Assembly: GCA_964599285.1 (NCBI GenBank)
Contig: CAZREI010000001.1
Coordinates: 34,562-98,561 of the forward strand
DNA length: 64,000 nucleotides
Direction of reading: 5' to 3'
Source: an uncultured Candidatus Saccharibacteria bacterium
GTDB taxonomy: Bacteria; Patescibacteriota; Minisyncoccia; Minisyncoccales; Staskawiczbacteraceae
The notes under the pieces are model-generated. The model was not told where the DNA came from. It saw only the letters and a program-made list of their open reading frames with translations, and ran no database searches. The position numbers and the translations under genes were made by a program. Shown here in pieces: positions 19,721 through 48,376 of this stretch (the stretch's first letter is position 1; each line of letters opens with the position of its first letter).

Positions 19721-19806
19721 TGGCTACCAAATACGAATCTGTACGAATATACCAATAACCAAAGCGTTTTCATTCGTATATTCGTACAGATTCGTATTTG
19801 GTAGCA
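19721..19806. repeat. family D (TACGAATAT-word) long hairpin, copy 1
   Basis: Perfect 29-bp stem gctaccaaatacgaatctgtacgaatata / tatattcgtacagattcgtatttggtagc. It ends 3 nt before the ftsW start. Confidence 0.85.
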
Positions 19807-19808
19807 TA

Positions 19809-20936
19809 GTGATGAAGCAACACATAAATTATTATTTTTTAGGATTATCCATTATTCTTTCCGGATTCGGTCTGCTGTTTTTATCAACCCTTTCGGCCAT
19901 CGCCTCGCTGCAAGTGTTTGGCAACACTAACCACTATTTATTCCACCAATTAATTGCCCTGGTCATTGGCATTGTTGCCGGCATCATCATATTTTTTCTG
20001 CCGCTGGGATTTTTAAAAAAACTGTCGCCGATATTGCTGGTAATAAATGTTTTGGGATTGGTGGTGGTATTTTTGCCATTTTTGGGAACCAAATTTTGGG
20101 GTGCTTCGCGCTGGATTAGCGTGGGAGACACCACCTTCCAACCTTCGGAATTTTTTAAAATCACCATCATTTTATTTTTTGCCAGCTGGCTTGCCAGCAA
20201 GTTCTCCGAGTCATCAAAAAGAGGCTTTGGATTTAAAATAAAAAAAGAGTACGATAATCTGGTAAAAGTATTTGTGCCTTTTGTTATTTTTTTGGCCATC
20301 ATCGCCGCCATTTTTTATTTACAAAAAGACATCAGCACGCTGGGCATTATCATGGTGGCGCTCTTGGGAATGTACTTTATTGCTGGCACGCCGATTTGGC
20401 ACACGCTGACATTGCTAGTGGTTGGAGTGTCAGGTGCGGCGCTGGTTATTATTAAAGAACCTTATCGCTTAAACCGTTTGCTGATATTTTTGCATCCGGA
20501 CGCCGACCCTTTGGGCAAAGGATTACAATTAAAACAGTCACTCATTGCCCTGGGATCAGGTGGTTGGTTTGGAAAGGGGCTTGGCATGTCCACCCAAAAA
20601 TTCGGCTTTTTGCCCCAAGCCATGTCGGACTCTATTTTTGCCATTTTGGGAGAGGAACTGGGCATCATCGGTTGCGCTATTTTGGTGCTGGCATTTTTAG
20701 CATTTTTGTATTTGGGATTTAAAATCTCGCGCCAATCAACTGATTCATTTGCTCGCCTGACCGCCGTTGGCATCACCCTGTGGATTGTGTTTCAGGCGTT
20801 TTTCAACATAGCCTCAACCCTGGGGTTGTTTCCACTAAGCGGCATTCCGCTGCCATTTTTTTCTTACGGAGGCTCGCACATCATAGCGGAACTGATGGGA
20901 GTGGGGTTGATGTTGAATATCTCTAAGAACGGGTAA
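19809..20936 (+). CDS. ftsW: SEDS-family peptidoglycan glycosyltransferase FtsW/RodA
   Basis: Multi-TM protein with 'GGWFGKGLGMS', 'SDSIFAILGEELG' and 'PLPFFSYGGS'. Confidence 0.9.
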   Translation: MMKQHINYYFLGLSIILSGFGLLFLSTLSAIASLQVFGNTNHYLFHQLIALVIGIVAGIIIFFLPLGFLKKLSPILLVINVLGLVVVFLPFLGTKFWGASRWISVGDTTFQPSEFFKITIILFFASWLASKFSESSKRGFGFKIKKEYDNLVKVFVPFVIFLAIIAAIFYLQKDISTLGIIMVALLGMYFIAGTPIWHTLTLLVVGVSGAALVIIKEPYRLNRLLIFLHPDADPLGKGLQLKQSLIALGSGGWFGKGLGMSTQKFGFLPQAMSDSIFAILGEELGIIGCAILVLAFLAFLYLGFKISRQSTDSFARLTAVGITLWIVFQAFFNIASTLGLFPLSGIPLPFFSYGGSHIIAELMGVGLMLNISKNG

Positions 20937-21020
20937 GTGGCTTGATTTACGATTTATGATTTAGGATTTATGAATCCGTAAAAAAACGACGCCTCATCAT
21001 TCTGATTTGGCGCCCTGTTA

Positions 21021-21287
21021 TTAGAGCTTCTTGCCACACTCTGTGCAATAAATGCTTCTTGCCTCTTCAGGAAGTTCGCACTCGTCCTCTTTTTCGGTTT
21101 GATGGTATTTATGCGGGTCAGCGTCATGACGCTCCTGTTCGGAATTCTCCTCTCTTATTTCTAATGCATCCAAATTGGGCGGAAGAGGAAGAAGTTTACC
21201 ACATTGCCGACAATACCTATCATAGTTACCGATGGGCCAATGACAGTTTGGGCATTCTTGAATATTGATTTCATCAAATAAGACCAT
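21021..21287 (-). CDS. small double zinc-ribbon protein
   Basis: 'CPNCHWPIGNYDRYCRQCG' and 'CTECGKKL' separated by an acidic linker. Confidence 0.5.
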   Translation of the reverse strand: MVLFDEINIQECPNCHWPIGNYDRYCRQCGKLLPLPPNLDALEIREENSEQERHDADPHKYHQTEKEDECELPEEARSIYCTECGKKL

Positions 21288-21399
21288 ATGGCCTCCTGGT
21301 TAAGAAAGAGCAAATAGTAACCTTTTGTACTTTAGTACATTAAAATAATAATGTCAAGTCTTTTATGGCTCTGCCAAGTTTGATAACATGAACGAACAA

Positions 21400-21463
21400 G
21401 ATTGCCGCGCTGCGGCCTCGGCCAGCTGAGCTGGCCAGACCCGCTCAGCGGGTCGCAATGACG
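21400..21463. repeat. family C element
   Basis: 'gattgccgcgctgcggcctcggccagctgagctggccagacccgctcagcgggtcgcaatgacg'. Confidence 0.75.
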
Positions 21464-21464
21464 T

Positions 21465-21536
21465 TACGTATTAGCAATTTTGTAGATTAGCATAAGATTT
21501 GTAGATTTGCATTGCCCTTATTAGCATTACAATTAT
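21465..21536. repeat. family G arm (GCAAATCTACAAATCT words)
   Basis: 'attagcaattttgtagattagcataagatttgtagatttgcattgccc' is near-identical to 33780-33826. It abuts the murG ATG. Confidence 0.7.
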
Positions 21537-22649
21537 ATGAAAATACTTTTTACCGGTGGGGGAACGGGCGGCCACTTGTTTCCCGTCATTGCCATCGCCC
21601 GGGAACTCAAGCGCTTGTCGCAGGACCCGTCCATTAGCCTGCACTACATTGGTCCCGCGGACAGATTGGGCAGCGCGGTTTTGGCCCAGGAAAACATTGC
21701 CATTCATTCCATTGTTGCCGGAAAACTGCGCAACTATTTTTCTTTACAAAATATCAGCGACGCGCTTTTTTTTATTCCCCTTGGATTTTTGCAAAGCTTT
21801 TTTTTGTTGCTTTTTATCCGACCCAATCTGGTTTTCAGCAAAGGCGGCACCGGATCGGCCCAGGTGGTACTGGCCGCCAGAATTTTGGCCATCCCGATAT
21901 TCATTCACGAATCCGATTCGGTAGCCGGCCGCGCCAACAAGCTGGCCTATTCGTGGGCCAAAAAAGTGTTTGCCTCATTTGAAAAAACTGATTACTTTGA
22001 CCCGTCAAAATCCGTGGTAGTGGGCAACCCGATATTAAAAGAAATCACCGAAGGTGACAAAAAAACCGCAAAAGATATTTTCAATCTTGCACTGCAAAAA
22101 CCGGTTTTACTCTTTTTGGGAGGTTCGCAAGGCGCCCAGCCCATCAACGATTTTATCCTTGGCATTTTGCAGGATCTGACAAGAAGTTACCAGGTCATCC
22201 ATGTCTGTGGCAAAAAAAATGAAACAGCAGTCAAAGAAGAGTCTGACGTGATTTTGACTGGCGACGCAAAAGCGCAATACCATGTTTTTGGATTCCTCAA
22301 TGAAATAGAACTAAAACATGCCTTCGCCGTCGCGGACTTGGTGGTTTCGCGGGGCGGGTCGGGCAGCATTTTTGAAATCGCCGCTTGCGGCAAACCCAGC
22401 ATTATTATTCCTTTGCCATCATCGGCCAACAACCACCAAGCCAAAAATGCCTATGCGTACGCCAAAAATGGCGCGGCGCTGATCATAGAACAAGACAACC
22501 TGACCCCAAACTTTTTTCTGGAAAAACTGCGCAATTATTTTTCACATCCGGAAGAGTTGGAAAGCATGAGCCAAGCCGCCCTGCAATTTGCCAAGCCACT
22601 GGCAGCCAAAGCGATTGCAAGAGAAATCTTGGAATTTCTCAATGCGTAA
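21537..22649 (+). CDS. murG: UDP-GlcNAc:lipid I N-acetylglucosaminyltransferase MurG
   Basis: 'KILFTGGGTGGHLFPVIAIA', 'RGGSGSIFEIAACGKPSIIIPLP' and 'HQAKNA'. Confidence 0.9.
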   Translation: MKILFTGGGTGGHLFPVIAIARELKRLSQDPSISLHYIGPADRLGSAVLAQENIAIHSIVAGKLRNYFSLQNISDALFFIPLGFLQSFFLLLFIRPNLVFSKGGTGSAQVVLAARILAIPIFIHESDSVAGRANKLAYSWAKKVFASFEKTDYFDPSKSVVVGNPILKEITEGDKKTAKDIFNLALQKPVLLFLGGSQGAQPINDFILGILQDLTRSYQVIHVCGKKNETAVKEESDVILTGDAKAQYHVFGFLNEIELKHAFAVADLVVSRGGSGSIFEIAACGKPSIIIPLPSSANNHQAKNAYAYAKNGAALIIEQDNLTPNFFLEKLRNYFSHPEELESMSQAALQFAKPLAAKAIAREILEFLNA

Positions 22650-22788
22650 TTGATCTAATTAACCTAATTATTCTAATTGATCTAATCAAATCCCAATGCC
22701 AAAATGTCCAAACCGTTTTAGCAATTAGTCATTCACGTTTTTAGACATTCCTTAGAATAATTAGGTTAATTAGAACAATTAGAATAAT
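22648..22788 (+). repeat. family F long hairpin (AATTAGAATAATT arms), copy 1
   Basis: Arms 'taattaacctaattattctaattg' and 'cttagaataattaggttaattagaacaattagaataatt'. It ends 7 nt before the gltX ATG. Confidence 0.8.
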
Positions 22789-22795
22789 TTAAAAA

Positions 22796-24265: not shown

Positions 24266-24275
24266 AACTATCGTG

Positions 24276-24309
24276 AATGGCTAATTCGCACGAATTAGCC
24301 ATTTTTATT
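24276..24309 (+). terminator. hairpin terminator after gltX
   Basis: aatggctaattcg..cgaattagccatt followed by tttatt. Confidence 0.55.
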
Positions 24310-24360
24310 GTGCGACCCCGCTCAGCGGGGTCAAGGTCCGCTTAGCGGACCGACAGTTTG
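24304..24360 (+). repeat. family B double-hairpin element
   Basis: 'tttattgtgcgaccccgctcagcggggtcaaggtccgcttagcggaccgacagtttg'. Confidence 0.85.
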
Positions 24361-24479
24361 GCTTGGCAAAAAGATAAAACTACTCTATACTGAAGTTCAG
24401 CACCTACTACATGGCTCATCTTAGTTTTGCCTTCGCCAAACCAAAGATGCGCCATACTCATACACAGGGAGGATTTGTC

Positions 24480-25174: not shown

Positions 25175-25177
25175 GAT

Positions 25178-30413: not shown

Positions 30414-30552
30414 CTTGTCGGTCCGCTAAGCGGACCTTGACCCCGCTCAGCGGGGTCGCATAATAAAACACTCCTACTCGTAGGTGGGTAGGAGTGTTTT
30501 GTCGGTCCGCTACGCGGACCCTGACCCCGCTCAGCGGGGTCGTATAATATAA
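30414..30552 (-). repeat. composite: family B copy, 24-nt hairpin module (flipped), family B copy (right island boundary)
   Basis: 'cttgtcggtccgctaagcggaccttgaccccgctcagcggggtcgcataataaaacactcctactcgtaggtgggtaggagtgttttgtcggtccgctacgcggaccctgaccccgctcagcggggtcgtataatat'. Confidence 0.85.
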
Positions 30553-30559: not shown

Positions 30560-30587
30560 GATTGCTTCGCTGCGGCTCGCAATGACG
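30560..30587. repeat. family C element
   Basis: 'gattgcttcgctgcggctcgcaatgacg'. Confidence 0.8.
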
Positions 30588-30616
30588 ACGGTGAAAAAAA
30601 TGACGACTATAAAAAA

Positions 30617-30661
30617 TTCGTGATTCGTGGAAATTCGTTCGTCAATTCGTGTTCATTCGTT
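30617..30661. repeat. family D-like half element (ATTCGT words)
   Basis: 'attcgtgattcgtggaaattcgttcgtcaattcgtgttcattcgt'. Confidence 0.5.
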
Positions 30662-30663
30662 TT

Positions 30664-31350
30664 TTACTTCCCGAAGCGGCGGTGGCGGCTGTCAAATTCC
30701 TCCAGCGCTTTATCAAAGTCTTCCTTGGTAAAATCCGGCCAGAGTTTTTCGGAAAAATAGAGTTCCGCGTAGGCCGCTTGCCATAAGACAAAATTAGACA
30801 AGCGCATCTGGCCGCCGGCGCGGATGACCAAATCCGGATCGGGCAAGCCCGCCGTTGATAAATAATTTTCAAACAGTTCTTCGGTTATTTTTTCTGCCGG
30901 AATTTTCTCCTGGATGATTTTTTTGACCGCTTGCACAATGTCCCATTTTCCGCCGTAGCTTACGGCCAGATTCAAATGTAATTTTTGATTTTTCGCGGTT
31001 TGAGTTTCTACATTTTCCACCACTTTTTTTAAAGATGAAGATAATTTTTCTTTTTGGCCGATGACGCGCACCCGCACGCCTTCTTGGTTAAACCGATCAA
31101 TGCCTTGGCTAAGGTATTTTTCAAACACGTGCATTAAAAAATCAACCTGATCTTGCGGGCGCTTCCAATTTTCACTGGAAAATCCAAAAACGGTGACCAC
31201 CTTCACTCCCCTTTCCTTGCACCAGCCCAAAAAATCATTGAATTTATCTTTGCCTTTTAGGTAACCGTCTTGCATCAAAAAACCCTTTTCTTGCGCCCAG
31301 CGCCGGTTGCCATCGGGAAATAAGACGATATGATTTGGTACCTTTGACAT
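30664..31350 (-). CDS. uppS: undecaprenyl-diphosphate synthase
   Basis: 'HIVLFPDGNRRWAQEKG', 'VTVFGFSSENWKRP' and 'DLVIRAGGQMRLSNFVLWQAAYAELYF'. Confidence 0.9.
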   Translation of the reverse strand: MSKVPNHIVLFPDGNRRWAQEKGFLMQDGYLKGKDKFNDFLGWCKERGVKVVTVFGFSSENWKRPQDQVDFLMHVFEKYLSQGIDRFNQEGVRVRVIGQKEKLSSSLKKVVENVETQTAKNQKLHLNLAVSYGGKWDIVQAVKKIIQEKIPAEKITEELFENYLSTAGLPDPDLVIRAGGQMRLSNFVLWQAAYAELYFSEKLWPDFTKEDFDKALEEFDSRHRRFGK

Positions 31351-31378: not shown

Positions 31379-31407
31379 TTGACAAATACAGGTATTCTTG
31401 CTAACAT
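31379..31407 (+). promoter_or_regulatory. candidate sigma70-type promoter for rpmA
   Basis: TTGACA (31379-31384), a 17-nt spacer, then TAACAT (31402-31407). Confidence 0.4.
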
Positions 31408-31444
31408 ACAATTGTTATGTAATTGAACTATTAAAGTTATTATC

Positions 31445-31530
31445 TTGCTACGAAATACGAATTTTTTACGAATATACGAAACTAAACGCTTATGTTCGTA
31501 TATTCGCAGGTAATTCGTATTTCGTAGAGA
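31445..31530. repeat. family D long hairpin, copy 2 (rpmA leader)
   Basis: 'gctacgaaatacgaattttttacgaatatacgaa...ttcgtatattcgcaggtaattcgtatttcgtagaga' ends 5 nt before ATG 31536. Confidence 0.85.
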
Positions 31531-31535
31531 AATTC

Positions 31536-31814
31536 ATGTCAACAAGTAAATCATCAGGTTCATCCAGGCTCGGCCGAGATTCGGCCGCACAGCGCCTTGG
31601 CATTAAGCGATACGCCGGCCAAACGGTAAAAACCGGCATGATCATCGTGCGCCAGCGCGGCACGCGGTATTTGCCTGGAAAAAATGTAAAACGCGGATCG
31701 GACGATACGCTCTACGCCTACAAACCGGGAACGGTGCGGTTTGCAACTAAATTAAAAAAGTTATTTAATGGACGGCAACGGCAGGTTAAGGTGGTGAATG
31801 TAGACGCAAAATAA
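31536..31814 (+). CDS. rpmA: ribosomal protein L27
   Basis: '[56 protein letters not shown]'. The start was trimmed to ATG 31536. Confidence 0.9.
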
Positions 31815-33611: not shown

Positions 33612-33826
33612 GATAATGGTAATGCAAATCTACAAATCTCATGCGAATGCCGCGAAATTGCGAATGCTACAAATCTTGGATTGCCGCGTGTCCGGCTTGC
33701 GAGCCGGCACTCGCAATGACGACGAGCGCATATACGCCTCTCACCGTCATTGCGAGCCGCAGCGTGGCAATCCAGACACATTAGCAATTTTGTAGATTAG
33801 CATGAGATTTGTAGATTTGCATTGCC
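33612..33826. repeat. family G composite long hairpin with a family C pair at its centre
   Basis: The left arm 'ggtaatgcaaatctacaaatctcatgc' and right arm 'gcatgagatttgtagatttgcattgcc' enclose 33679-33773 ('ggattgccgcg...cgcaatgacg' / 'cgtcattgcgagccgcagcgtggcaatcc'). Confidence 0.8.
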
Positions 33827-36210: not shown

Positions 36211-36215
36211 GAATT

Positions 36216-36304
36216 TCTCTACGAATTACGAATGTAGTACGAATATACGAATGCAAATGTTTTTGGTTATTGGTATATTCGTAAAAAATTCGTATTTCGT
36301 AGCA
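36216..36304. repeat. family D long hairpin, copy 3
   Basis: 'ctctacgaattacgaatgtagtacgaatatacgaatg...ggtatattcgtaaaaaattcgtatttcgtagca'. Confidence 0.85.
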
Positions 36305-36308: not shown

Positions 36309-39300
36309 TTATCTTAATACTTGCGCGTAGTAAGTAATGGTTCTTGTCTGGCCTTGGGTGATGCTGCCGATGTTTAATCCCGATATCACGTCGCCGGAAT
36401 TAGGAATGCCGTCAACCGTTAAGTTTCCCTTGTAAATTAAGTTGTAAGGCAGAAGATCTCGCACCGAAACATTGTTGACGTTCTGAAAGGCAGATGAAGA
36501 AACTACAATTTTAAACTGGACAACATCATCAACGTGGGCATAGACAAAGTTTCCCCAGGTCAACAGTCCATTGGAAAGGTTGCGCACGGTTTTTACCACA
36601 ATGAACGAAGACCGGCTTGTCGTCTGTCCCACACAAGAACTGTTTTGGCAGGTTTGGTTGCCCTGGCAATACTGCGCCACTTCCTGCTGGTTGCCGCAGG
36701 AGTTGTACCAGTACACATTATTGTTGGAACAGAGCTGGTAGGAATGGTTGATGCAGAAATTATTATTGTTATTGATACAGCTTCCGTTCTGGCAGGTTTG
36801 GTTTGAATTGCAGTTGTAGCTGAAGGTTCGGTTGCCGCAATTGTCTTGATTATACACCGCGTTTCCTTGGCAAATCTGGCTGGTATTCTGGTTGCAATTT
36901 TGGTTAACTTGAACACTGCAAGAAGCGCTTTGCGTCTGACCAGCCGATGTTACGGTGACCGAAGCGGTTTGGGTATTTGAATAGTAGTTTGAGTTTGAAA
37001 AAACGTTGGAACAGCTTTGATTGGAACCACTGCAAGCTCCCGACCATTGGTAAGTGTAGCTGCTGTTGCCGCCGGTTGGGCTGGCCGTAAAGGTTACCAC
37101 CTGGTTGGCATTGGCCGGATTTGGAGAAGCATTGCAGGTAACCTGTAAATTGCTTTGAGTTTGGTTAACTTGAACGGAACAGGTGGTGTCTTTAGTTTGG
37201 CCATCGGATGTTACTCTCAAGTTGGCGGTTTGGGTTCCGGTGCTACCAAAAGAATTTTGGCAAGTTTGGCTGGAACCGGTACAGGCGTTGGTCCACTGGT
37301 AATTATAGGTTCCATTGCCACCGCTGACGGTTGGCACAAAGGTTACTTGCTGATTAGTGTTGGCGGGATTAGGAGCAGCCAAACACGAAGCTTGCAGATT
37401 ATTATTGGTAGTTTGATTAACCTGAACACTGCAGATTGCGTCCTGAACTTGACCACCCGAAGTCACCCGAAGCCCGGCATTAAAGGTGCCTGTATTGCTA
37501 AACGTAGTGGAGCAGGTTTGGCCGGAGCCGGTGCAGGCATTGGTCCATTGATAAGTATAGCTGCCGTTCCCACCATTGATAATTGGGAAAAAGGTTACTT
37601 GCTGGTTAGTCGTTGTAGGGTTTGGTGAAGCGCTGCAAGAAATTTGCAAAGGATTTGGCGTTGGGGTTGGGGTAGGAGTTGGGGTCGGGGTTGGCGTAGG
37701 TCCTGGATTTACCTGGACCGTGCAGACCGCATCTTGGGCCTGATTGCCCGAAGTTACATGAAGCGCAGCAGTATAAGTTCCTGGCGCAAATGAGTTTACG
37801 CAGGTTTGGTTATTTCCATTGCAAGCCAACATCCAATGATAAGTATAACTTCCCGTTCCGCCGATGGCGCTTCCAGTAAAGGTAACTGGCTGGTTTGGTG
37901 TGGCGGGATTGGGAGCGCCGCTGCAAGAAATTTGCAGGTCGGCAGTTGGCGCTATAATGCTGAAATAATTGTCTGATAGATCGTTTGGAGCACCGGTTTG
38001 GGTAACATCATCGACTTCTATTTTGTATGTATTGCCTTGTAGCCCAGCTGGTATTGTCCATGAATATGATCCAGAATTAATGGTATTCGCTATAAGCGTA
38101 CTGACAACAACGCCACGATAATCATTAAGGAAAATCTGAATGTTTGCATTTAATGGCACGTTAGTTGATGTCCACGTAATAGTGTGCGTGGTTCCTTGAA
38201 TCCATTGCTCACCTCCATTTGGTGAAATCACGGTAATAGTTGGTGTTGGATTGTTATTGCAGGTGCCGTTTGAGCAGGTTTGGTTGCTTTGGCAATTCTG
38301 CACCAAATTGCCTCGCACTCCGCAAGAGTCAAAGTTGTAAACACCGGTAACTCCGTTGACCGTGGTGCATTGCTGGGATGCGTTTGGAGTGCAGGTTTGG
38401 TTGACTAATACACTGCACGAAGCAGTTTGGGTTTGGTTTCCCGAGGTAACGGTTACGGACGCAACGTGGATTCCCGGAAAAGCATACGCTACCCTGCAAA
38501 TTTGGGCGCTATCGCACATGGCTACTCCTCCGGTCCATTGGTAGCTATAACTGCCAGTGCCTCCGGTGGGTATAGGGGTAAAGGTAACTTGCTGGTTAGT
38601 GTTGGCTGGATTAGGAGAGGAAGAACAGGAAACTTGCAGAGGGTTTGGATTTTGAATGCAGGTTCCGCCCATGCACGTTTCGTTTGCATTGCAAGGTGTT
38701 TTTTGCTGAAACACGGTAGCGGTGTCACAACGGGCATTGGGTGTTGAAGGATTGACACAAGTATTGGTGGTAAAATCTTGCCACACACTGCCGTTAAAGC
38801 ATCTTGGGAATCCCGTGTATCCAGTAGCTCCGCAATCGGTGTTAGTGTTGCACGCGATAGTTTGGTTCTGGCAGACGGCAGTGCTGGAACTGGTGTTGAC
38901 GCAGGTTTGGTTGGTGGTGCAATTTTGGGCAAGACTGCCTCGCACTCCACAAGAATCAAAGTTGTAAACACCGGTAACTCCGTTGATTGTGGCACATTGC
39001 TGAGATGCGTTAGGAGTGCAAACCTGGTTTACCTGGACATCGCAAGTGGCATCCTGGAATTGGCTCCCTGATGTTACATGCAAATGTGCCGTATAGGTTC
39101 CTGGATTTGAAAAGGTGCGAGCGCAGCTTTGGTTGGAACCATTACAATCGCCGGTCCATTGATAGATGAAATTTCCAACGCCTCCGGTAACCGAAGCATG
39201 AAATTGCATTGCGGTGTTGGTCGATACGGGGTTTGGAAAAGCAAAACAGGAAACTTGGAAAGGAAAAGGAGTCGGAGTTGGCGTGGGATTATTAAAACAG

Positions 39301-40025
39301 CTTCCGGATTGGCAAGTTTGGATTGAAGAACAGCTATGGTCAAACGTTTGATTTCCGCAAGAGTCTACATCAAATACCGAATTATTTTGACAGATCTGGC
39401 TGACGTTAGGCGTGCAAGTTGGCGTTGGGGTCGGGGTGGGAGTTGGCGCTGGAGATGGAACGAGACTCGGACAATCATTTATTAAATTTGCAAAGGAATA
39501 CCCAAAAGGCTGACCTGGGTAAGTTACCACTGGCGCGACGCCATTGATGGCATCCATGAAAAAATCCAGCTGCATGGATCCGCAGGACTGGTTGTTAAAT
39601 TGCACCACGTCGGCTTCTATCAATTTGCTTTCACCGGGTTGCAAGGTTACGTCTTGTGAAATGACTTGGCAGGCCTGGCTGGTGGGATTTTGGTCGGGAG
39701 TCCAGTAGTGCTGGCACTGGCCGATTCCGGATCTGGCTGGCCAACCACTGGCTTCCTGGCAACGACAAGAAAACTTGCGCAAAGCAAGCGTCTTGGCAAA
39801 TCCATCGTTGTTTTTGACCCAGGCTTGCAGGCTGTTTTGGCCGCCCACAACATACTGGGCAATCGGGCCGATAGTCAGCCCGTTAAAATAACTTGATGGG
39901 GCAATGACCGTGCCGCTGTTGCCATAGGTATAGTCGGCCGATATTACTCCCGGGTACAATAAGATGCTGGCCAACGCAAAAAACAGCAATGCGCCGGTGC
40001 TCGATGCTTTATATACTATCTTCAT
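36309..40025 (-). CDS. giant secreted protein: ~8 PKD-like repeats, ~6 Cys-rich modules, C-terminal DUF11-like domain
   Basis: Signal peptide from ATG 40025. Repeats 'LQVSC..PNPA.TNQ.VTF....GG.G.Y.YQW...C.G..Q.C'. Cys modules 'C.PNASQQC......VYNFDSCG.......C..NQTC'. PT-rich linkers. Confidence 0.8.
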   Translation of the reverse strand: MKIVYKASSTGALLFFALASILLYPGVISADYTYGNSGTVIAPSSYFNGLTIGPIAQYVVGGQNSLQAWVKNNDGFAKTLALRKFSCRCQEASGWPARSGIGQCQHYWTPDQNPTSQACQVISQDVTLQPGESKLIEADVVQFNNQSCGSMQLDFFMDAINGVAPVVTYPGQPFGYSFANLINDCPSLVPSPAPTPTPTPTPTCTPNVSQICQNNSVFDVDSCGNQTFDHSCSSIQTCQSGSCFNNPTPTPTPFPFQVSCFAFPNPVSTNTAMQFHASVTGGVGNFIYQWTGDCNGSNQSCARTFSNPGTYTAHLHVTSGSQFQDATCDVQVNQVCTPNASQQCATINGVTGVYNFDSCGVRGSLAQNCTTNQTCVNTSSSTAVCQNQTIACNTNTDCGATGYTGFPRCFNGSVWQDFTTNTCVNPSTPNARCDTATVFQQKTPCNANETCMGGTCIQNPNPLQVSCSSSPNPANTNQQVTFTPIPTGGTGSYSYQWTGGVAMCDSAQICRVAYAFPGIHVASVTVTSGNQTQTASCSVLVNQTCTPNASQQCTTVNGVTGVYNFDSCGVRGNLVQNCQSNQTCSNGTCNNNPTPTITVISPNGGEQWIQGTTHTITWTSTNVPLNANIQIFLNDYRGVVVSTLIANTINSGSYSWTIPAGLQGNTYKIEVDDVTQTGAPNDLSDNYFSIIAPTADLQISCSGAPNPATPNQPVTFTGSAIGGTGSYTYHWMLACNGNNQTCVNSFAPGTYTAALHVTSGNQAQDAVCTVQVNPGPTPTPTPTPTPTPTPNPLQISCSASPNPTTTNQQVTFFPIINGGNGSYTYQWTNACTGSGQTCSTTFSNTGTFNAGLRVTSGGQVQDAICSVQVNQTTNNNLQASCLAAPNPANTNQQVTFVPTVSGGNGTYNYQWTNACTGSSQTCQNSFGSTGTQTANLRVTSDGQTKDTTCSVQVNQTQSNLQVTCNASPNPANANQVVTFTASPTGGNSSYTYQWSGACSGSNQSCSNVFSNSNYYSNTQTASVTVTSAGQTQSASCSVQVNQNCNQNTSQICQGNAVYNQDNCGNRTFSYNCNSNQTCQNGSCINNNNNFCINHSYQLCSNNNVYWYNSCGNQQEVAQYCQGNQTCQNSSCVGQTTSRSSFIVVKTVRNLSNGLLTWGNFVYAHVDDVVQFKIVVSSSAFQNVNNVSVRDLLPYNLIYKGNLTVDGIPNSGDVISGLNIGSITQGQTRTITYYAQVLR

Positions 40026-40132
40026 AATCGTGGCGCGCTTTATTAGGCTCGCGTAAGTAGATGCCCGAGAAACTTGGCAAATCCCCACTACAAAACAAAG
40101 CGTCAAATTAATTTACCTTTTTATGTATTTTA

Positions 40133-40305
40133 CTTTGAATTACGAAATGCTTTCGAGGTATTTTCTCCAAATTTTGAGATAGAAATTTGATAGAATTTTT
40201 CGGCTTAGCCAACGGCTCCGCCGAAAAATTATAGCGAATTTATAGCCAAAATTTGGAGAAAAGACGCGAAACTCGCCTTTTCAAATGGCATTTCGTAATT
40301 CAAAG
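40133..40305 (+). repeat. family A element, copy 5
   Basis: Near-identical to copy 1 (TTGAATTACGAAATGCTTTCGAGGTATTTTCT...). Confidence 0.85.
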
Positions 40306-40570: not shown

Positions 40571-40657
40571 ATGCTACCAAATACCAATAGTTACGAATAT
40601 ACCAATAACCAAAACGTTTTCATTCGTATATTCGTAAAAAATTCGTATTTCGTAGCG
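40571..40657. repeat. family D long hairpin, copy 4
   Basis: 'atgctaccaaataccaatagttacgaatataccaataaccaaaacgttttcattcgtatattcgtaaaaaattcgtatttcgtagcga'. Confidence 0.85.
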
Positions 40658-40663: not shown

Positions 40664-40726
40664 ATCCCAATAACTTAATAACCACTCCAATAATAGCCAG
40701 CACCACCCCCACTACCCAAAACCGTC
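40664..40726 (-). pseudogene. relic duplicate of the mraY 3' end (last 20 codons plus stop)
   Basis: The reverse complement translates 'RRFWVVGVVLAIIGVVIKLLG*', versus the live mraY C-terminus 'MRFWIVGIVLAIIGVVIRLLG*'. Confidence 0.7.
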
Positions 40727-40732
40727 GCTTCG

Positions 40733-40817
40733 CTCCTTAGAAACCCACGGTTTCTAACGTGTCCGCTTCGCGGCACTGTTTTCCTTCACGGGGAAATACC
40801 CAATTTCCCCGACCCCC
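40733..40817. ncRNA. candidate structured motif, copy 1 (three hairpins)
   Basis: 29 nt are identical to copy 2 (gctccttagaaacccacggtttctaacgt), followed by a variable hairpin and then a conserved 41-nt segment with a covarying 8-bp stem. Confidence 0.35.
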
Positions 40818-40854
40818 TTTGTACGGTTTTGGATTGTCCTGCCTCAAAGAGTTG

Positions 40855-41916
40855 CTATCCCAACAACCGTATTACCACTCCTATGATAGCTAATACAATT
40901 CCAACAATCCAAAACCGCATCGTAACCTTGTATGCTGGCCAGCCTATGGCTTCAAAGTGATGGTGGATGGGTGTGGATTGGAATATTTTTTTGTGGCGAA
41001 ATTTTTTGGATAAAAGTTGGATAATCACTGACAGAACTTCTATCACCAAAAGACCGGCAATGATGGGCAAGACAAAAACGGAATCTGTCAAAAACGCTAC
41101 GACCGACAACGTGGTAGCAAGCCCGACCGTTCCCACTTCTGACATGTAAAACCGAGCCGGCGGAATGTTAAACCACAAAAAAGAAAAAAGCGTTCCCGTA
41201 ATGACCGCGCAGAAAGTTGCCAAATCCACCTTGCCCTGCGAGAAAGCAATAATGGTAAAGGCGCCAAAAATAGAAGCAAAAACGCCGCCAGACAATCCGT
41301 CTAACCCGTCAATGATGCCTCCGGACCAGGTAGCAATCATCACGATAATAAAAACCGGAATATAAAAAATTCCCAAAGAAATATGTCCCAATAACGGAAT
41401 GCTGATTACGTCAAATCCGAGTTTTGCATAAAACCACCAACCACCTACCAATCCAATCAGCGCTACTATCAAAAGGCGTTTTTTAAAAGACAATCCCCCG
41501 CCAACATAACCACCCAGCGACGATACTACCAGCATATCGTCTAAGAGCCCCGCCAATGAAGCGACTATCAACGTAAACAACGGAAGCCAGGTTTGGCTTC
41601 TTGATAAAAAATTCAGATTTGCAAACCAAGTATTAGGAAACAGGAAAGAAATAATATAAAAAAAGAAAATAACCGCTACCGTGGTGATGCAAATTAAAAG
41701 TCCTCCCATGCGCGGCGCCTTGGTTTCACGCTCTTTATGAAGACTGTTAAATACTACAGCTTCTTCTCCGCTGATAGCTTTTTTTCCAGCCTGTTTTTTC
41801 CAGAGCTTATGCTTATACAAAAAATGTATTAAAAAAGGACACCAGGCAATGGCGATGATAGAAGCGGCGGCCGAAACCCCCAAAACCTTAATTACATAAA
41901 ACGTAAGAAGTGTCAT
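40855..41916 (-). CDS. mraY: phospho-N-acetylmuramoyl-pentapeptide transferase
   Basis: Multi-TM protein with 'GLLDDMLVV', 'IIDGLDGLSGG' and 'TPIHHHFE'. Confidence 0.9.
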   Translation of the reverse strand: MTLLTFYVIKVLGVSAAASIIAIAWCPFLIHFLYKHKLWKKQAGKKAISGEEAVVFNSLHKERETKAPRMGGLLICITTVAVIFFFYIISFLFPNTWFANLNFLSRSQTWLPLFTLIVASLAGLLDDMLVVSSLGGYVGGGLSFKKRLLIVALIGLVGGWWFYAKLGFDVISIPLLGHISLGIFYIPVFIIVMIATWSGGIIDGLDGLSGGVFASIFGAFTIIAFSQGKVDLATFCAVITGTLFSFLWFNIPPARFYMSEVGTVGLATTLSVVAFLTDSVFVLPIIAGLLVIEVLSVIIQLLSKKFRHKKIFQSTPIHHHFEAIGWPAYKVTMRFWIVGIVLAIIGVVIRLLG

Positions 41917-41923: not shown

Positions 41924-42097
41924 GGCTACGAAATACGAATTTTTTACGAATATACGGAAACGCTTCGCTTCTCCACGAATTACGAAACGAGTACGAATAT
42001 ACGAACGTGAACCTATGACTCATTTTCGTATATTCGTAAGATTTCGTATTTCGTAGCCCGTTTTGGTATATTCGTAAAAAATTCGTATTTCGTAGCG
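41924..42097. repeat. family D double-length hairpin cluster, copy 5
   Basis: 'gctacgaaatacgaattttttacgaatatacgg...cgtatattcgtaagatttcgtatttcgtagc' plus 'ggtatattcgtaaaaaattcgtatttcgtagcga'. It starts 8 nt upstream of the mraY ATG. Confidence 0.85.
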
Positions 42098-42100
42098 ATA

Positions 42101-43102
42101 TCACCAGGTGTAGGCTTTCCCAACCCAGTCAACCAGTTCCTGCATTTGGCCGAAGCGGTCTTCGGTTCCAAGAACAATATAAATAATATCATCTCCCTGT
42201 TTTTGGTTTTGTTGGACCACCATAAAACATCCCAGCGCCTTGTCGGTCCATCCGGTTTTGCCGCCGATGATATTATCCGTTCCCAGTAATTTGTTGGTGT
42301 TGACCAGAACGTGATGAAGTGTGCCATCGTCCAAATATAACGAATGCTCCTTTTGGCTGACAATTTCCCGAAAGAGCGGATAATTTTCAAACAAGTATCC
42401 TGATAATACGGCCAAGTCTTTGGCACTGGAATGAGACGCGACGTCCAGACCGGCTGGATCGCTAAAATGGGTTTGAGTCAATCCCAAATTTTTGGCTTGC
42501 TCGTTCATGGCTGACACAAAAGCGTCAGTACCCATCACTTCCGAAAGCGCAAAAGCGGCTCGATTGCTGGATTCCATTAAGGTAATGTATAAAAGGTTTT
42601 TTACCGAAAGTGTTTGGCCAAGTTGCAAGCTTCCCTGTTCACCCTCTTGTGCCATCGCCGCTGAATCTATGGTAATTTTTTTGCCCAAGTCAAGATTTTG
42701 CATCACCGCCAGCGCTGTCATCAGCTTGGTCAAACTGGCAACCGGCAAACGTATTTGAGCATTTTTTTGAAATAATATTTTGGAAGGTTGGTTGCCAATT
42801 TCAACTGCAATAGCTGAAGGCGCGTCAAGCGCCAAGTCTTCCACTTGCCAATTGCGAGTGGGCTTGGTGTCTGGATTAGCCAGTGGTTTAACCGCAGGAC
42901 TGTCCGATGGCAAAGGTTTTTGAATGTTAGCTGATACGTTTTCAATAGGCGCGGGCAAACTTGCGGTAAAAAATCCCTTGTGACTAAAAGTCCAATTGCT
43001 CGCGTTGGTCGCAAGCCACTGGACTGAAGTAACCAGCAGCGAAGCCAAAACCAAACATTTAAAAAATACTACGGCTTGTTTTGCGATGTATACCCTGTTC
43101 AT
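42101..43102 (-). CDS. D-alanyl-D-alanine carboxypeptidase (S11 PBP)
   Basis: 'ASLTKLMT' (SxxK), 'MESSNRAA' (SxN) and 'GGKTGWT' (KTG). Confidence 0.85.
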   Translation of the reverse strand: MNRVYIAKQAVVFFKCLVLASLLVTSVQWLATNASNWTFSHKGFFTASLPAPIENVSANIQKPLPSDSPAVKPLANPDTKPTRNWQVEDLALDAPSAIAVEIGNQPSKILFQKNAQIRLPVASLTKLMTALAVMQNLDLGKKITIDSAAMAQEGEQGSLQLGQTLSVKNLLYITLMESSNRAAFALSEVMGTDAFVSAMNEQAKNLGLTQTHFSDPAGLDVASHSSAKDLAVLSGYLFENYPLFREIVSQKEHSLYLDDGTLHHVLVNTNKLLGTDNIIGGKTGWTDKALGCFMVVQQNQKQGDDIIYIVLGTEDRFGQMQELVDWVGKAYTW

Positions 43103-44580: not shown

Positions 44581-44635
44581 AATTTTTTATTATTTTACAG
44601 ATTCAAAAGGTTTATATTTCGTTTCAACTTTATTT

Positions 44636-45199: not shown

Positions 45200-45347
45200 G
45201 CTTTTTCCTATCGTTTAACGAGTTTAACGTTTTACCAAGCTCAAAAAGCTGACCTACCATGCTAATCTTTTGGGCTGCGGTCATTTTCTTAAAAATTTCA
45301 TCCTGCATTTTCTGAGCCATCTTTGGAGTTACTATTTGTTTTTTCAT
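45165..45347 (-). CDS. small helical protein upstream of the NTase gene (possible partner)
   Basis: 60-aa ORF overlapping the NTase start by 35 nt. No motif recognised. Confidence 0.3.
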   Translation of the reverse strand: MKKQIVTPKMAQKMQDEIFKKMTAAQKISMVGQLFELGKTLNSLNDRKKHGNNGLSHKNS

Positions 45348-45350
45348 TAT

Positions 45351-46529
45351 TTATTTCAACTTTATTTTTATAAATTTTCGTTTGCCCGCCTGCACCACCA
45401 TTTCATTTTCCAACGCTACCTCTTCTTTCCAGTTGGTAATTTTTATTTCCGAATTAATGGTCACCGCGCCACCGTCCACCAGCCGGCGGGCTTCATTTTT
45501 TGAGGGAGCCAAATTACTATCGCACAATAAATCTAAAATCGGGTAACTGGTTTTTGATGTTTCAAAAATTTCTATTTCGCTAGGCGTTTCGTGCCGGCGA
45601 AACACTTTATCGAAATTTTCTGTTGCCTCTCTAGCGGCTTTTTCTCCGTGGTACATTTTTACAATCTCGCTTGCCAGACGCGCTTTTTGATCGCGCGGGT
45701 TTGGTATTTTTTTAATTTCTTGTAAATCTAAATTCGTGCAAAGTTCAACATAATCACCAATCAATTCATCCTTTATAGACATAATTTTTCCGTACATATT
45801 TTCAGGAGTATCGGTAAGGTAAATCGCGTTATCATACGTTTTACTCATTTTACGCCCATCGGTGCCCAGCAACAGTTTTGTGGTTAAAATATCTTTGTCT
45901 TTATGATGGTATATTTTTTGCAAGGTTCTGCCACAAAGCATGTTAAACATTTGGTCGTTTCCGCCAATCTCCACATCAACGTCCATGGCCACCGAATCGT
46001 ACCCTTGCATTAACGGGTACATAAATTCAGTTTGGTTTATCGGAGTATTTTCTTTCATGCGCTTATCAAACATGTCCCGATGCAACATTTGCTGAACGGT
46101 AAAATGGCTGGATAATGTTAGAATATCTTCCCACCGTAATTTTGAAAGCCAAGCGGAATTATACTTTATTTTTACGTTGGAAAAATTTAAAACTTTGGAA
46201 GCCTGCTTTTTATAATTTTTAAAATTTTCTTTGATTTGCTTATCAGAAAGCGGTAAGCGCATGGCATCGCGGCCAGAAGGATCCCCAATTTTTGCGGTAA
46301 AATCTCCGATTAACAAAATAACTTCATGTCCCAGTTCCACAAATTCTTGTAGTTTTTTCAAAACAACCGCATGCCCCAAATGCAACAAAGACCCCGTAGG
46401 ATCAATGCCGTAATATACCCTAAGCCGCTTGCCCGAAAGCAGCTTTTTTCCCAAGTCCTGTCGCACAATAACTTCGCTCACTCCCCTGCTCAACACGCCT
46501 TCAATTTTTTGCTGGTCAATGTTTACCAT
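45351..46529 (-). CDS. tyrS: tyrosyl-tRNA synthetase
   Basis: 'GIDPTGSLLHLGHAVVLKKL' (HIGH), 'KMSKT' and the C-terminal S4-like 'SKNEARRLVDGGAVTIN'. The start was trimmed to ATG 46529. Confidence 0.9.
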   Translation of the reverse strand: MVNIDQQKIEGVLSRGVSEVIVRQDLGKKLLSGKRLRVYYGIDPTGSLLHLGHAVVLKKLQEFVELGHEVILLIGDFTAKIGDPSGRDAMRLPLSDKQIKENFKNYKKQASKVLNFSNVKIKYNSAWLSKLRWEDILTLSSHFTVQQMLHRDMFDKRMKENTPINQTEFMYPLMQGYDSVAMDVDVEIGGNDQMFNMLCGRTLQKIYHHKDKDILTTKLLLGTDGRKMSKTYDNAIYLTDTPENMYGKIMSIKDELIGDYVELCTNLDLQEIKKIPNPRDQKARLASEIVKMYHGEKAAREATENFDKVFRRHETPSEIEIFETSKTSYPILDLLCDSNLAPSKNEARRLVDGGAVTINSEIKITNWKEEVALENEMVVQAGKRKFIKIKLK

Positions 46530-46566
46530 GAGTTTATTATACTGATTTGCCAATAAAATAAAACTA

Positions 46567-46594
46567 TTGACAATAACTCTCAACATAGTAAGAT
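46567..46594 (+). promoter_or_regulatory. candidate promoter for the small Cys-rich ORF
   Basis: TTGACA (46567-46572), a 16-nt spacer, then TAAGAT (46589-46594). Confidence 0.35.
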
Positions 46595-46660
46595 GGGTGC
46601 GAGTAGGATGGCAGAATGGTTTTGCCAAAAACTCAATGTGTCCTTTGACAAGGGATTGGT

Positions 46661-46855
46661 ATGAACATCAGTGAAAACGGGTTCGGGAAGAATTTTTGTA
46701 GAGGCAACTGCGGCAAAGAACTGCCAAGAGGCCAGTTCTACTGCCCGACTTGCCATGGCAAGATAGGTTCAAAGCCGCTTTCAAAAGTGGCTATCCTGAT
46801 GATGCGGTGCAAACCGAAAGGCAAACGTTGTCCGGCAAAGAGTCCGCCGGAATAG
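46661..46855 (+). CDS. small Cys-rich (zinc-ribbon-like) protein
   Basis: 'CRGNCGKELPRGQFYCPTCHGK', bracketed by a candidate promoter and a terminator. Confidence 0.4.
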   Translation: MNISENGFGKNFCRGNCGKELPRGQFYCPTCHGKIGSKPLSKVAILMMRCKPKGKRCPAKSPPE

Positions 46856-46877
46856 TAAAATCACAAAACCACGAATG

Positions 46878-46907
46878 CGGCAAAGCTGATGCTTTGCCGT
46901 CTTTTTT
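46878..46907 (+). terminator. rho-independent terminator
   Basis: cggcaaagc-tgat-gctttgccg followed by tcttttttt. Confidence 0.65.
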
Positions 46908-48232
46908 TAAAACTTGTCCACAAGCTTATAAATATCTCCAGCTCCCATAATCACTAATACTTCCCCATTTTTTATGTTTTCTTTTACGAATTTTTCGGCT
47001 TGATCAGTTGGCATATAAGTTGCATTTTTGCGAGCGATTTTTTTTACCAGATTTTCAGAGCTTACCTCATTGCTGATTTTTTTCTCCTCGCGGCCAGCGA
47101 CATCGTAAATATCGGTAATAATAATGGTATCTATTTTGACTTGCCGAAACACTTTTACAAAATCTTTTAATAAATAAAACGTGCGCTGATATTGGTGGGG
47201 CTGGAAAATGAGCCAGATTTTTCTTCGCCCTTCCGAAGCCTTGCGCGAAGGAGGGTTAGAAGGATATTTTTCTCGTGCGGCTTTAAGTGTCGCTAACACT
47301 TCGTTTGGATGATGGCCGTAATCAGAAACCACGATTATTTTTTTCCCATTGACATTCCCTTCCTTAATTTCGAATCTTCTCCAAGATCCCTTGTATTCAG
47401 AAAGAACTTTAAACGTAATAGCATCTTTGATATGCAAAATTCTGGCCACTGCCAGTACCGCCAATGCGTTGGACACGTTATGCTGGCCGGGAATTTTTAA
47501 AATCTTTTTTATTTTTGCCGATTCTTTCTGGCGCAGCGAATATGGCATAGCGGAAAATTTCCCACCAGAAATTTTTTTCAAATTTTTATCGTCGTTATTA
47601 AATACCAAAAATCCATCGCGGGGTAACTTGGCAATAAAATGCTTGAAGGTTTTTACAACGTTGGCAAACGTTTTAAAATAATCCAAATGTTCTTTGTCCA
47701 CGTTGGTGACTACCGTAATTTTAGGAAAATAATGGGAAAAAGAATCATCGTACTCGCAGGCTTCAATGACCAGGTACTTGCTCTGGCCCATCCTAAAATT
47801 TGAATTATTAAACTCTTTTAATTTAGTGCCGACAATCACCGTCGGGTCCAGCCCCGCTTTTACCAACGTCAAAGCAATCATGGCCGTGGTAGTACTTTTG
47901 CCATGGCTCCCAGAAACCGCGATGGTGTCGTATGTTTTGGTTAATTCTCCCAATGCTTCAGGGTAAGTTATAGCTTTTAGCTTATAGCTTATAGCTTTTA
48001 GCAATTCCGGGTTATTCTGCGCAACTGCGGGACTATAAACTACTAAATCAAAACTTTTATCTATGTGTTCTGCTTTATTGCCAATGAGAATTTTTACTCC
48101 TTTGGCTTCCAAAAAATCGGTAATTTCCGACTGTGCCAAATCCGAGCCACTAATTTTGTGTCCCTGCCCCAAATAATATTGGGCCAAAGCCGAAACCCCA
48201 ATACCCCCAATGCCAATAACGTGAATTTTCAT
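46907..48232 (-). CDS. murC: UDP-N-acetylmuramate--L-alanine ligase
   Basis: 'KIHVIGIGGIGVSALAQ', 'IAVSGSHGKSTTTAMI' and 'VVTNVDKEHLDYF'. Confidence 0.9.
   Translation of the reverse strand: MKIHVIGIGGIGVSALAQYYLGQGHKISGSDLAQSEITDFLEAKGVKILIGNKAEHIDKSFDLVVYSPAVAQNNPELLKAISYKLKAITYPEALGELTKTYDTIAVSGSHGKSTTTAMIALTLVKAGLDPTVIVGTKLKEFNNSNFRMGQSKYLVIEACEYDDSFSHYFPKITVVTNVDKEHLDYFKTFANVVKTFKHFIAKLPRDGFLVFNNDDKNLKKISGGKFSAMPYSLRQKESAKIKKILKIPGQHNVSNALAVLAVARILHIKDAITFKVLSEYKGSWRRFEIKEGNVNGKKIIVVSDYGHHPNEVLATLKAAREKYPSNPPSRKASEGRRKIWLIFQPHQYQRTFYLLKDFVKVFRQVKIDTIIITDIYDVAGREEKKISNEVSSENLVKKIARKNATYMPTDQAEKFVKENIKNGEVLVIMGAGDIYKLVDKF
47223..47263. repeat. intragenic in-frame repeat word in murC (AGCCTTGCGCGAAGGAGG type)
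   Basis: 'cttcgcccttccgaagccttgcgcgaaggagggttagaagg' encodes 'PSNPPSRKASEGRRK' on the minus strand. Confidence 0.55.
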
Positions 48233-48294
48233 ATTTTTCTGTCCAGACGCGAGCGAGGCCGGCTTTGCCGGATCGCCCGTCTCGGGAAAAATTT

Positions 48295-48376
48295 CTTACG
48301 AATTACGAATTTGGCCGAATTACGAATGTACGAATTCGCCGTATTCGTAATTCGCTTAAATTCGTAATTCGTAGGA
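48295..48376. repeat. family D-type hairpin, copy 6
   Basis: 'cttacgaattacgaatttggccgaattacgaatgtacgaattcgccgtattcgtaattcgcttaaattcgtaattcgtagga'. Confidence 0.8.

Follow-up and report, generated by a model that had tools for sequence, protein, structure and literature searches.

Family D, an AT-rich palindromic repeat at stop-start junctions in Patescibacteria and Bacteroidota: a probable non-autonomous mobile element

Introduction

Repetitive extragenic palindromes (REPs) are built on GC-rich stems of 5-13 bp with an unpaired GTAG at the 5' end; their termini can carry GTAG or TAG, and they often lie within a few nucleotides of stop codons (PMC3733652). Here we describe a family of long hairpins, termed family D, in a stretch of 64,000 nt from an uncultured Candidatus Saccharibacteria bacterium (assembly GCA_964599285.1, contig CAZREI010000001.1, positions 34,562-98,561; in the following, the window), which, to judge from the databases and literature searched, represents a previously undescribed palindromic repeat family. 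Like REP and REPIN elements, family D consists of short multicopy intergenic hairpin palindromes that are often found a few nucleotides from stop codons, and it shares with REPINs the conserved stems and variable loop, with a target duplication being evident in neither. However, the stems of family D are 30-38 bp long, AT-rich and built of tandem words, its CTAC and GTAG pair with each other and stand at the 3' end of each strand, and its arms are not themselves palindromes, so that it does not show the anatomy of a REP, namely an imperfect palindrome of 20-40 nt with an unpaired 5' GTAG or CGTC tag. There are no reports of GTAG REPs from Bacteroidetes or Patescibacteria, whereas family D occurs in both, and REPIN families are lineage-specific, whereas family D spans phyla. 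Lastly, REPs and REPINs are mobilised by RAYT (Y1 HUH) transposases, while among the examined loci no RAYT was linked to family D.

Other described systems resemble family D in part. The Correia elements of Neisseria and the enterobacterial ERIC sequences are miniature inverted-repeat transposable elements (MITEs) of 80-170 bp that lie by genes and are transcribed as long hairpins in mRNA, which can be cleaved by RNase III or RNase E, altering mRNA stability. Family D is of a similar size class, likewise consists of inverted repeats by genes, and is present or absent at orthologous sites. Correia elements are known from a single genus and possess an IHF site, a promoter that points outward and a duplication of TA; by contrast, family D has arms made of word arrays and is addressed to the gap between stop and start codons, and a duplication, a promoter or a parent insertion sequence was not found. 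The STRR heptamer repeats of cyanobacteria and the SDR mini-elements of Nostoc are intergenic and confined to cyanobacteria. They have in common with family D the tandem 7-nt words, the ability to form hairpins and the nesting of small elements in other repeats, but the words are different and a stop-start junction rule has not been described for them. The early mRNA of phage T7 carries intercistronic RNase III hairpins of unique sequence, and these resemble family D as long intercistronic stem-loops with the 3' side near the next start. This is a likeness of working rather than of membership, since family D is a dispersed repeat family and its cleavage by RNase III is hypothetical. Family D is set apart from all of these systems by its tandem-word AT-rich arms, a two-helix design with an internal loop, the junction address, and words that are common to Patescibacteria and Bacteroidota.

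Anatomy and distribution of the family

In Patescibacteria the element takes the form (G)CTACGAAATACGAAT-nnn-TACGAATATACGAAT-loop-ATTCGTATATTCGTA-nnn-ATTCGTATTTCGTAG(C), while in the Bacteroidota form the outer word is GATTACGAAT. Each arm (35-40 nt) has an outer block (CTACGAAATACGAAT) and an inner block (TACGAATATACGAAT), separated by a variable and mostly unpaired spacer of 3-5 nt, and the two arms flank a variable loop of 10-40 nt. The repeated unit extends from (G)CTAC to GTAG(C/AG). As is typical of MITEs, a short non-coding core lies between terminal inverted repeats, in many copies.

A scan of one genome per species for the palindromic core TACGAATATAC-N10-40-GTATATTCGTA retrieved at least 115 loci with the exact 22-nt core, which have the outer words in common too. 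Among the matches listed, 53 belong by record title to Patescibacteria of many classes, 44 to Bacteroidota, and 18 bear other or unplaced labels, three of these being Omnitrophota; all taxon labels are those of the records as given. The Bacteroidota matches include a Flavobacterium metagenome-assembled genome (MAG) with contigs of 0.8-1.5 Mb. Two of the listed loci, one from Veillonella (L021) and the sole Nostoc match among them (L056), look like chance hairpins. An AT-rich copy is present in a Uhrbacteria contig of 60% GC, just past a FtsW/RodA-type gene. In the same contig (L081), a 467-nt unit of a 108-aa open reading frame (ORF) and a hairpin is tandemly repeated at 6757-7776, which is either a real duplication or an assembly artefact.

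A search with nhmmer yielded 83 full-length copies of the Patescibacteria type in the examined loci. Genes were called by ORF heuristics. Rfam contains no family for the element, either by gathering threshold or by E-value: the hairpin gives generic sub-threshold matches to miRNA precursors, and the sole match above threshold was a tRNA-Ala. The core had no match in 2.9 million viral contigs, and BLAST of the element against phage and plasmid records returned none. A description of the family was not found in the searchable literature, using the word strings, palindromes or MITEs of the candidate phyla radiation, and REP/RAYT of Bacteroidetes. TIGR arrays did turn up there, but these are tandem arrays and family D consists of single hairpins.

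The address is the stop-start junction

The copies are strongly concentrated at gene boundaries. In 49 of the 83 copies, one end has within 16 nt an ATG with which an ORF of 60 codons or more begins (59%, versus 11% simulated, p=5e-26), a stop codon of an ORF of at least 60 codons lies within 12 nt in 50 (60% versus 17%, p=2e-18), and both adjoin the element in 31 (37% versus 1.9%, p=1e-31). For the simulation, the D copies were deleted and insertions were dropped uniformly in the non-coding DNA of the same loci, the p values being binomial. Where gene direction could be assigned (62 copies), 38 of 46 distances to the ATG are 7-10 nt, measured from the A of the terminal GTA, and the median distance to the upstream stop is 5 nt. 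The placement rule runs: stop codon, a gap of about 5 nt, the hairpin, a gap of about 8 nt, start codon. Same-strand spacers of up to 24 nt hold only 0.8% of the intergenic bases in the lineage and make up 8-18% of the junctions. Copies are almost confined to gene boundaries whose spacers would measure 5-25 nt without them, and also occur in loops of other hairpins. In Bacteroidota the stop side is tighter (1-4 nt), with the start 5-50 nt away.

The original prediction took start codons as the landmark of these hairpins. The distance to starts is indeed far from that of random placement, but the tie to stop codons is equally strong, so that proximity to a start is one half of the junction rule and not specific to starts; the junction is the true address. 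A special tie to cell-envelope and ribosomal genes, which was also suggested, did not extend beyond the window: elsewhere the genes downstream of D copies are housekeeping genes of all kinds (rpsF, rplJ, tsf, groES, groEL, recA, nusA, ftsH, hisS, glyQ, murG, tgt and comEC), and the association reflects the gene content of this window. In locus L062 (982-1429, an unplaced MAG) one copy precedes a putative groES of about 96 aa, called by position and size only, and another precedes groEL (Pfam Cpn60), with the tails AGAAATTT-ATG and AGAGAATC-ATG.

One and the same junction, that before queD (a member of the 6-pyruvoyl-tetrahydropterin synthase family), holds a D-type hairpin in five Bacteroidota MAGs (L003 2010-2092, L107 7160-7237, L086 2893-2963, L101 4738-4808 and L023 5104-5188). 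The hairpin begins 2-3 nt past the stop of a gene of about 360-385 aa and ends 5-9 nt before the queD ATG, and the loops are alike in four of the five.

Insertion and copying

Comparison of orthologous junctions points to insertion of the element. The dacA-mraY spacer measures -4 to 27 nt in the great majority of 83 orthologous mraY loci, while in the window it holds two nested D copies. In the closer relatives that have a filled spacer (L118, L125, L127/L159 and L130), it is occupied by a different, unrelated hairpin family each time. Likewise, the junction before the gene for a conserved 102-aa protein carries a hairpin of another family in L118, and in the rpmA 5' untranslated region (UTR), behind a conserved promoter, L117, L119/L120 and L121 each have a different hairpin. 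D copies are absent from the 401 kb of 86 related mraY loci, compared with seven in the 64-kb window.

Near-identical copies occur at different loci of one genome, with identities of 100% (L047:549 and L047:3178), 98% (L095:2722 and L097:602) and 93% (L089:1183 and L095:7585). In the two closest pairs the identity spans 82-86 nt, loops included, and the similarity stops at CTAC/GTAG or a few nucleotides from it; the 93% pair shares a few flanking nucleotides. Some loops are also common to copies from different genomes. Loops moreover serve as insertion sites, a D copy lying in a D loop in the window and an unrelated repeat lying in a D-like loop at L106:2886-2972. Presence or absence at orthologous sites together with near-identical copies elsewhere is what characterises MITEs, and both were observed. 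Copies have therefore been made recently within genomes, and the family is patchy among close relatives, yet spread across Patescibacteria and Bacteroidota. An empty ftsW junction was sought in metagenomes and not found. Among the loci examined there was no autonomous partner bounded by D arms, solo arms being rare and none pairing at kilobase distance around an ORF.

The tail before the start codon

Between hairpin and start codon lies a short tail, which the original prediction regarded as an initiation region brought along by the element. The junction GTAG-AGAAATTC-ATG (TTCGTAGAGAAATTCATG) is, as had been noted, identical at rpmA and the 102-aa gene, and similar tails occur in other genomes (AGAAATTCC, AGAAATTT, AGAAAATC, AGAAAAAC and CCAAATT). 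An AAATT-type motif is present at -11 to -1 in 24% of D-adjacent starts, while among the 387 other starts of these loci 4% have it (p=5.6e-5), and a start codon is faced by 17 of 22 ends that carry the motif versus 32 of 144 ends without it (p=8e-7). The enrichment is thus real, but the tail is not carried with the hairpin, because copies that are 98-100% identical bear different tails: the two 100%-identical copies L047:549 and L047:3178 have AGAATCT-ATG and GGGTT-ATG, and the 98% pair L095:2722 and L097:602 has CCAAATT-ATG and AGAAGTC-ATG. In the sister copy L049:423, which does not adjoin a start, AAATT is absent. The tail as a part of the mobile unit was accordingly rejected. Its sequence stems either from a preference for certain targets or from selection that favours an unstructured A/U-rich run where a hairpin abuts the AUG, two explanations which the data do not separate. 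GGAGG-type Shine-Dalgarno (SD) motifs are absent before the starts of ftsW, rpmA, the 102-aa gene and mraY in the window, in agreement with the earlier observation; SD-like motifs are rare across the window, and most starts have leaders of the type aaaacctATG. SD sequences are little used in the genome at large.

Signature at the DNA or RNA level

On the sense strand the RNA folds of the window copies have z-scores of -6 to -14, and the final 8-11 nt ahead of the AUG are unpaired in the predicted folds of four out of five single-copy sites (ftsW being the exception) and of the nested site. When copies were oriented by gene, the sense fold was slightly weaker than the antisense fold (+1.1 kcal/mol, p=0.012), with 63 versus 78 G-U pairs. 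No arm is favoured in conservation by gene direction (39 versus 35 variant words), and the hairpin body is without polarity. In a 46-copy alignment (A1) read on the plus strand as fetched, a variant apical word (ACC/ACT/ACA-AAT) appeared in 16 5' arms versus four 3' arms; this asymmetry is gone once copies are oriented by gene direction and is probably due to chance.

The outer/inner spacers of 3-5 nt are perfectly complementary in only eight of 58 copies, so that the variable internal loop is part of the design. The stems are conserved in sequence with little covariation, while the internal and apical loops are free, and the compensatory changes and sense-strand bias of a structured cis-regulatory RNA were not seen in family D. 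Conservation of stem sequence with free loops is the opposite of what structured RNAs display, and is the pattern of protein-bound inverted repeats. A scan for promoters detected neither enrichment nor any consistent promoter in the D arms, and a terminator scan called none of the D copies, with no T-run following the stems.

Copies in the window

The window contains seven family-D hairpins, one of them nested in the loop of another, as well as a one-armed word array, and TACGAATAT occurs 11 times versus 0.39 expected. Long hairpins with ACGAAT/ATTCGT words are present at all six sites where they had been reported. A covariance model of 46 family members hits 19724-19804, 31448-31527, 36219-36302, 40574-40655, 41973-42056 and 48296-48374 (E values of 3e-16 to 4e-8 for the window copies) and also detects a split arm of the outer copy at 41926-41967, with no other matches in the window; nhmmer recovers both split arms (41926-41963 and 42060-42095). 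Since the inner copy is resolved inside these split arms, the 174-nt feature at 41925-42098 is two elements, an outer copy with an inner copy in its loop.

The first copy (19723-19805, no strand assigned) occupies the space that separates the Mur-ligase stop (19715-19717) from the ftsW start (GTG 19809 or ATG 19812). Its arms of 34 nt are 97% complementary, and the stem is perfect as predicted, though over 30 bp (19723-19752 with 19776-19805) instead of 29. The second copy (31448-31527, plus strand) lies in the rpmA 5' UTR, downstream of the rpmA promoter TTGACA-17-TAACAT (31379-31407); its GTAG ends at 31527, 8 nt before the ATG at 31536, and the unpaired tail AGAAATTC occupies 31528-31535. 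In the window (31379-31535) and in L117, L119, L120 and L121, rpmA stands alone and divergent from uppS, with the conserved promoter TTGACA-17-TA(A/G)NAT; a hairpin is found in the 5' UTR right before the ATG in every relative examined, its sequence being unrelated between genomes. The third copy (36219-36302, minus strand) lies between the stop of a PKD-domain gene (whose minus-strand ORF, counted with its stop codon, spans 36309-40106) and the start of the 102-aa gene (ATG 36210), and is followed by the same tail AGAAATTC at 36211-36218 of the minus strand.

The fourth copy (40574-40655, minus strand) is located in the mraY 3' region, about 200 nt past the stop. Further downstream follow a site resembling a canonical terminator (40530-40516) and another resembling a promoter (40385-40357), and because this separate terminator-like site exists the copy itself is not the terminator. 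The fifth, outer copy (minus strand) has its minus-strand 3' arm at 41925-41962, ending 8 nt before the mraY ATG at 41916, and its other arm at 42059-42096, beginning 4 nt past the stop of the D-Ala-D-Ala carboxypeptidase gene (42101-42103); the sixth copy (41973-42056, minus strand) sits in its loop. The distances to the starts of ftsW, rpmA, the 102-aa gene and mraY hold to within a few bases of those first given. The seventh copy (48287-48383, minus strand) is diverged, with ACGAATT words, and directly adjoins the LigT stop (48377), with a murC-like start (48232) some 60 nt downstream of it. The feature at 30617-30665 (plus strand), previously taken for a half copy, is not a hairpin: it consists of five ATTCGT-like words in a single arm without a partner, and the family models do not detect it.

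Pfam confirms the flanking genes as those of a Mur ligase, FtsW, UppS, L27, the 102-aa conserved protein, the PKD-domain protein, MraY, the D-Ala-D-Ala carboxypeptidase, a MurC-like ligase and LigT. The window comes from a genome of Candidatus Staskawiczbacteria, a Patescibacteria lineage that also contains the nearest named relatives of its MraY (75-84% identity), and an exact look-up of the FtsW and L27 proteins matched no record.

Other hairpins and repeats

Family D is one of several repeat families in this DNA. Nearly all window spacers of at least 80 nt are essentially one large hairpin with gaps of 0-10 nt to both genes (for example 22650-22778, 50298-50423, 54491-54643, 11054-11380, 33618-33826 and 16902-17081), and further word families in such spacers are TTATTCTAA/AATTAGAAT, ACAAAT and GCAAATCTACAAAT. 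In the Staskawiczbacteria loci the same-strand spacers have a median of 99 nt, with lengths that seemingly form two groups (below 25 nt or about 100-175 nt). Another repeat, a composite of some 200 nt with the outer arms TTGAATTACGAAATGC / GCATTTCGTAATTCAA is found at 7323-7522, 9655-9891 and 40115-40300; its inner hairpin TTTC(C)CCAAATTTTGG...CGGCNNAGCC lies at 7366-7466, 9760-9844 and 40170-40254, and also at 8941-9059 and 16948-17048, and another copy of the composite occurs in the rpmA leader of the relative L120. A hairpin with 33-nt arms of GTAACC(C/A) words (17470-17536) lies inside the 875-aa Mur-ligase ORF (17090-19717), whose N-terminal 540 or so residues have no Pfam match, and may be an in-frame insertion of a word hairpin.

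A structured repeat of about 110 nt, comprising GGGGGTCGGGG...CCCCGTG(A/T)AGGAAAA and a TTAGAAACC...GGTTTCTAA hairpin, has three copies in the window (5638-5750, 40718-40830 and 63457-63570); it has no Rfam match and is kept downstream of mraY in relatives (L117 11080-11170, L118 11060-11120). The small GC-rich hairpins GACCCCGCTNAGCGGGGTC and GGTCCGCTNAGCGGACC are often paired (11250-11300, 12291-12335, 21420-21460 and 30415-30545). Finally, the repeat GCTTCGCTGCGGCTCGCAATGAC / GTCATTGCGAG is present in the window (30566-30590, 14611-14680, 55683-55760 and 56110-56140), in L118 (11150-11240) and in L106 (2886-2972), where it lies inside the D-like hairpin loop; it gives rise to spurious "...LRFARND..." ORFs.

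Origin and role of the hairpins

We consider it probable that family D is a non-autonomous palindromic mobile DNA element, MITE/REPIN-like in kind. The word blocks are most likely recognition sites, since the words are conserved, with the spacers and loops free to vary, and they would be read by a DNA-processing protein acting in trans. The element would be co-transcribed within operons and 5' UTRs and fold as a self-contained hairpin. The stop codon and the A/U-rich run of 7-10 nt ahead of the AUG would then stay single-stranded and come to lie side by side, such that termination-reinitiation and SD-independent initiation would be little disturbed. With the stop and the start region unpaired and adjacent, essential operons (the dcw genes, groESL and ribosomal protein genes) would therefore tolerate the insertion, and effects on mRNA processing or stability may occur. 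For a mobile element of this kind, proximity to starts would be a consequence of the junction address and of selection for an unstructured A/U-rich stretch before the AUG, rather than something delivered by the element.

Several points weigh against this interpretation. No direct repeat flanks the identical copy pairs, although a TA duplication could be hidden in C-TA-CGAA...TTCG-TA-G, and a filled/empty pair close enough to define the insertion was not found, the relatives being too diverged in DNA for exact patterns. No transposase or mobilising gene linked to family D was found in the examined loci; phmmer against all ORFs of 119 sequences, with IS200/RAYT-like queries, found one Y1_Tnp gene (IS200/RAYT-like; L080:6206-6862, Pfam E=1.5e-7), and this is flanked by GC-rich GAAGGCGACATTCCGGAATGTCGCCTTC hairpins and not by D copies. 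The analysed copies are not independent, since they were retrieved by the exact core pattern and several share one genome. Retention before queD fits selection as well as an old insertion, the extreme junction specificity and the AAATT tail could reflect a host function, and the co-transcription and RNA folding of the element in cells are predictions. The L080 locus (6140-6912, a Patescibacteria MAG) carries GAAGGCGACATTCCGGAATGTCGCCTTC on both sides of the Y1_Tnp gene plus a copy inside the gene; it is REPtron-like and unrelated to family D, and shows only that REPtron-like systems exist in Patescibacteria.

As the main alternative, the hairpins could be host-beneficial intercistronic RNA elements for processing, stability or translation coupling, such as substrates of the RNase III type or sites to which a sequence-specific RNA-binding protein attaches, which are kept at junctions by selection and not by selfish mobility. 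Such a role would account for the extremely non-random placement with its narrow distance to the AUG (mostly 7-10 nt), for the independent filling of the same junctions by different hairpin families in relatives, for the window spacers of at least 80 nt that are nearly all one big hairpin, for the AAATT-type tail, for the copy kept before queD in five MAGs and for words that are still AT-rich in a 60%-GC genome. On the other hand, the sense strand has no folding advantage or G-U excess, but rather the reverse, the stems are conserved in sequence without covarying and the internal spacers are mostly unpaired. Furthermore, close relatives without family D have spacers of 2-27 nt at the same junctions, indicating that the hairpin is dispensable, and identical copies at different loci imply copying. 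We regard this explanation as unlikely, retaining it at that level because of the striking address, the tail motif and the queD-junction retention. Far less credible are Rho-independent terminators or attenuators: stable stem-loops right past stop codons would suit them, but the flanks are AGAAATTCATG, CCAAGTTTAATG or similar with no T-run, copies lie inside conserved operons (the dcw genes and groES-groEL), a separate canonical terminator-like site follows the copy at 40574, and stems of 30-38 bp far exceed those of terminators. The terminator reading was rejected for the lack of a T-run and the presence of a separate terminator.

Hairpins might also arise in place, without transposition, if template switching or slippage at replication repeatedly turned short spacers into word palindromes. 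Perfect hairpins are a known product of template switching (bioRxiv 10.1101/2023.04.19.537475), and the arms are tandem arrays of 7-8-nt words, a one-armed array exists (30617-30665), and many families in these genomes use similar nnGAAT words. Nevertheless, such an origin is improbable in view of the identical 22-nt core and outer words in at least 115 loci across phyla, of copies that are 98-100% identical over 82-86 nt at unrelated loci, loops too, and of loops shared by copies of different genomes. Alternatively, the word arrays may serve the host at the DNA level by binding a nucleoid, replication or regulatory protein, the hairpin shape being incidental. Gyrase, IHF and Pol I bind at REP/BIME sites in an analogous manner, and conserved words with free spacers and loops, in an element symmetric to gene direction, agree with this. 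Yet the family is patchy among close relatives, the variable distance from arm to arm is ill-suited to a double-stranded operator and the address is gene junctions, not promoters, so that we give this possibility little credence. A broader proposal goes beyond the mobile element favoured here: family D and the other word-built families may form an undescribed mobile class of Patescibacteria and Bacteroidota, both of which largely lack SD-led initiation, a class that homes to stop-start junctions and hairpin loops and is now functional in operon mRNAs, either as self-folding spacers that juxtapose stop and start for SD-independent reinitiation or by setting processing and stability, with the words read by a protein. 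We put it forward as a speculative extension that is doubtful at present.

Implications

Patescibacteria genomes are regarded as streamlined; despite this, the gaps of at least 80 nt in the window are almost all one long hairpin, and about half of the same-strand junctions in the lineage appear to carry such inserts. Should family D truly move and home to stop-start gaps in essential operons, it would be relevant to the way in which small mobile DNA reaches harmless sites within a compact genome, and would raise the question of how translation manages at an SD-less start that a 30-bp stem precedes by 8 nt. The elements would also be a practical hazard to gene calling, through spurious ORFs and wrong starts, and to the assembly of these MAGs. 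The same 15-nt words in Patescibacteria and Bacteroidota would then raise the question of DNA exchange between the two, and the family would offer a testable handle, Flavobacterium being genetically tractable.

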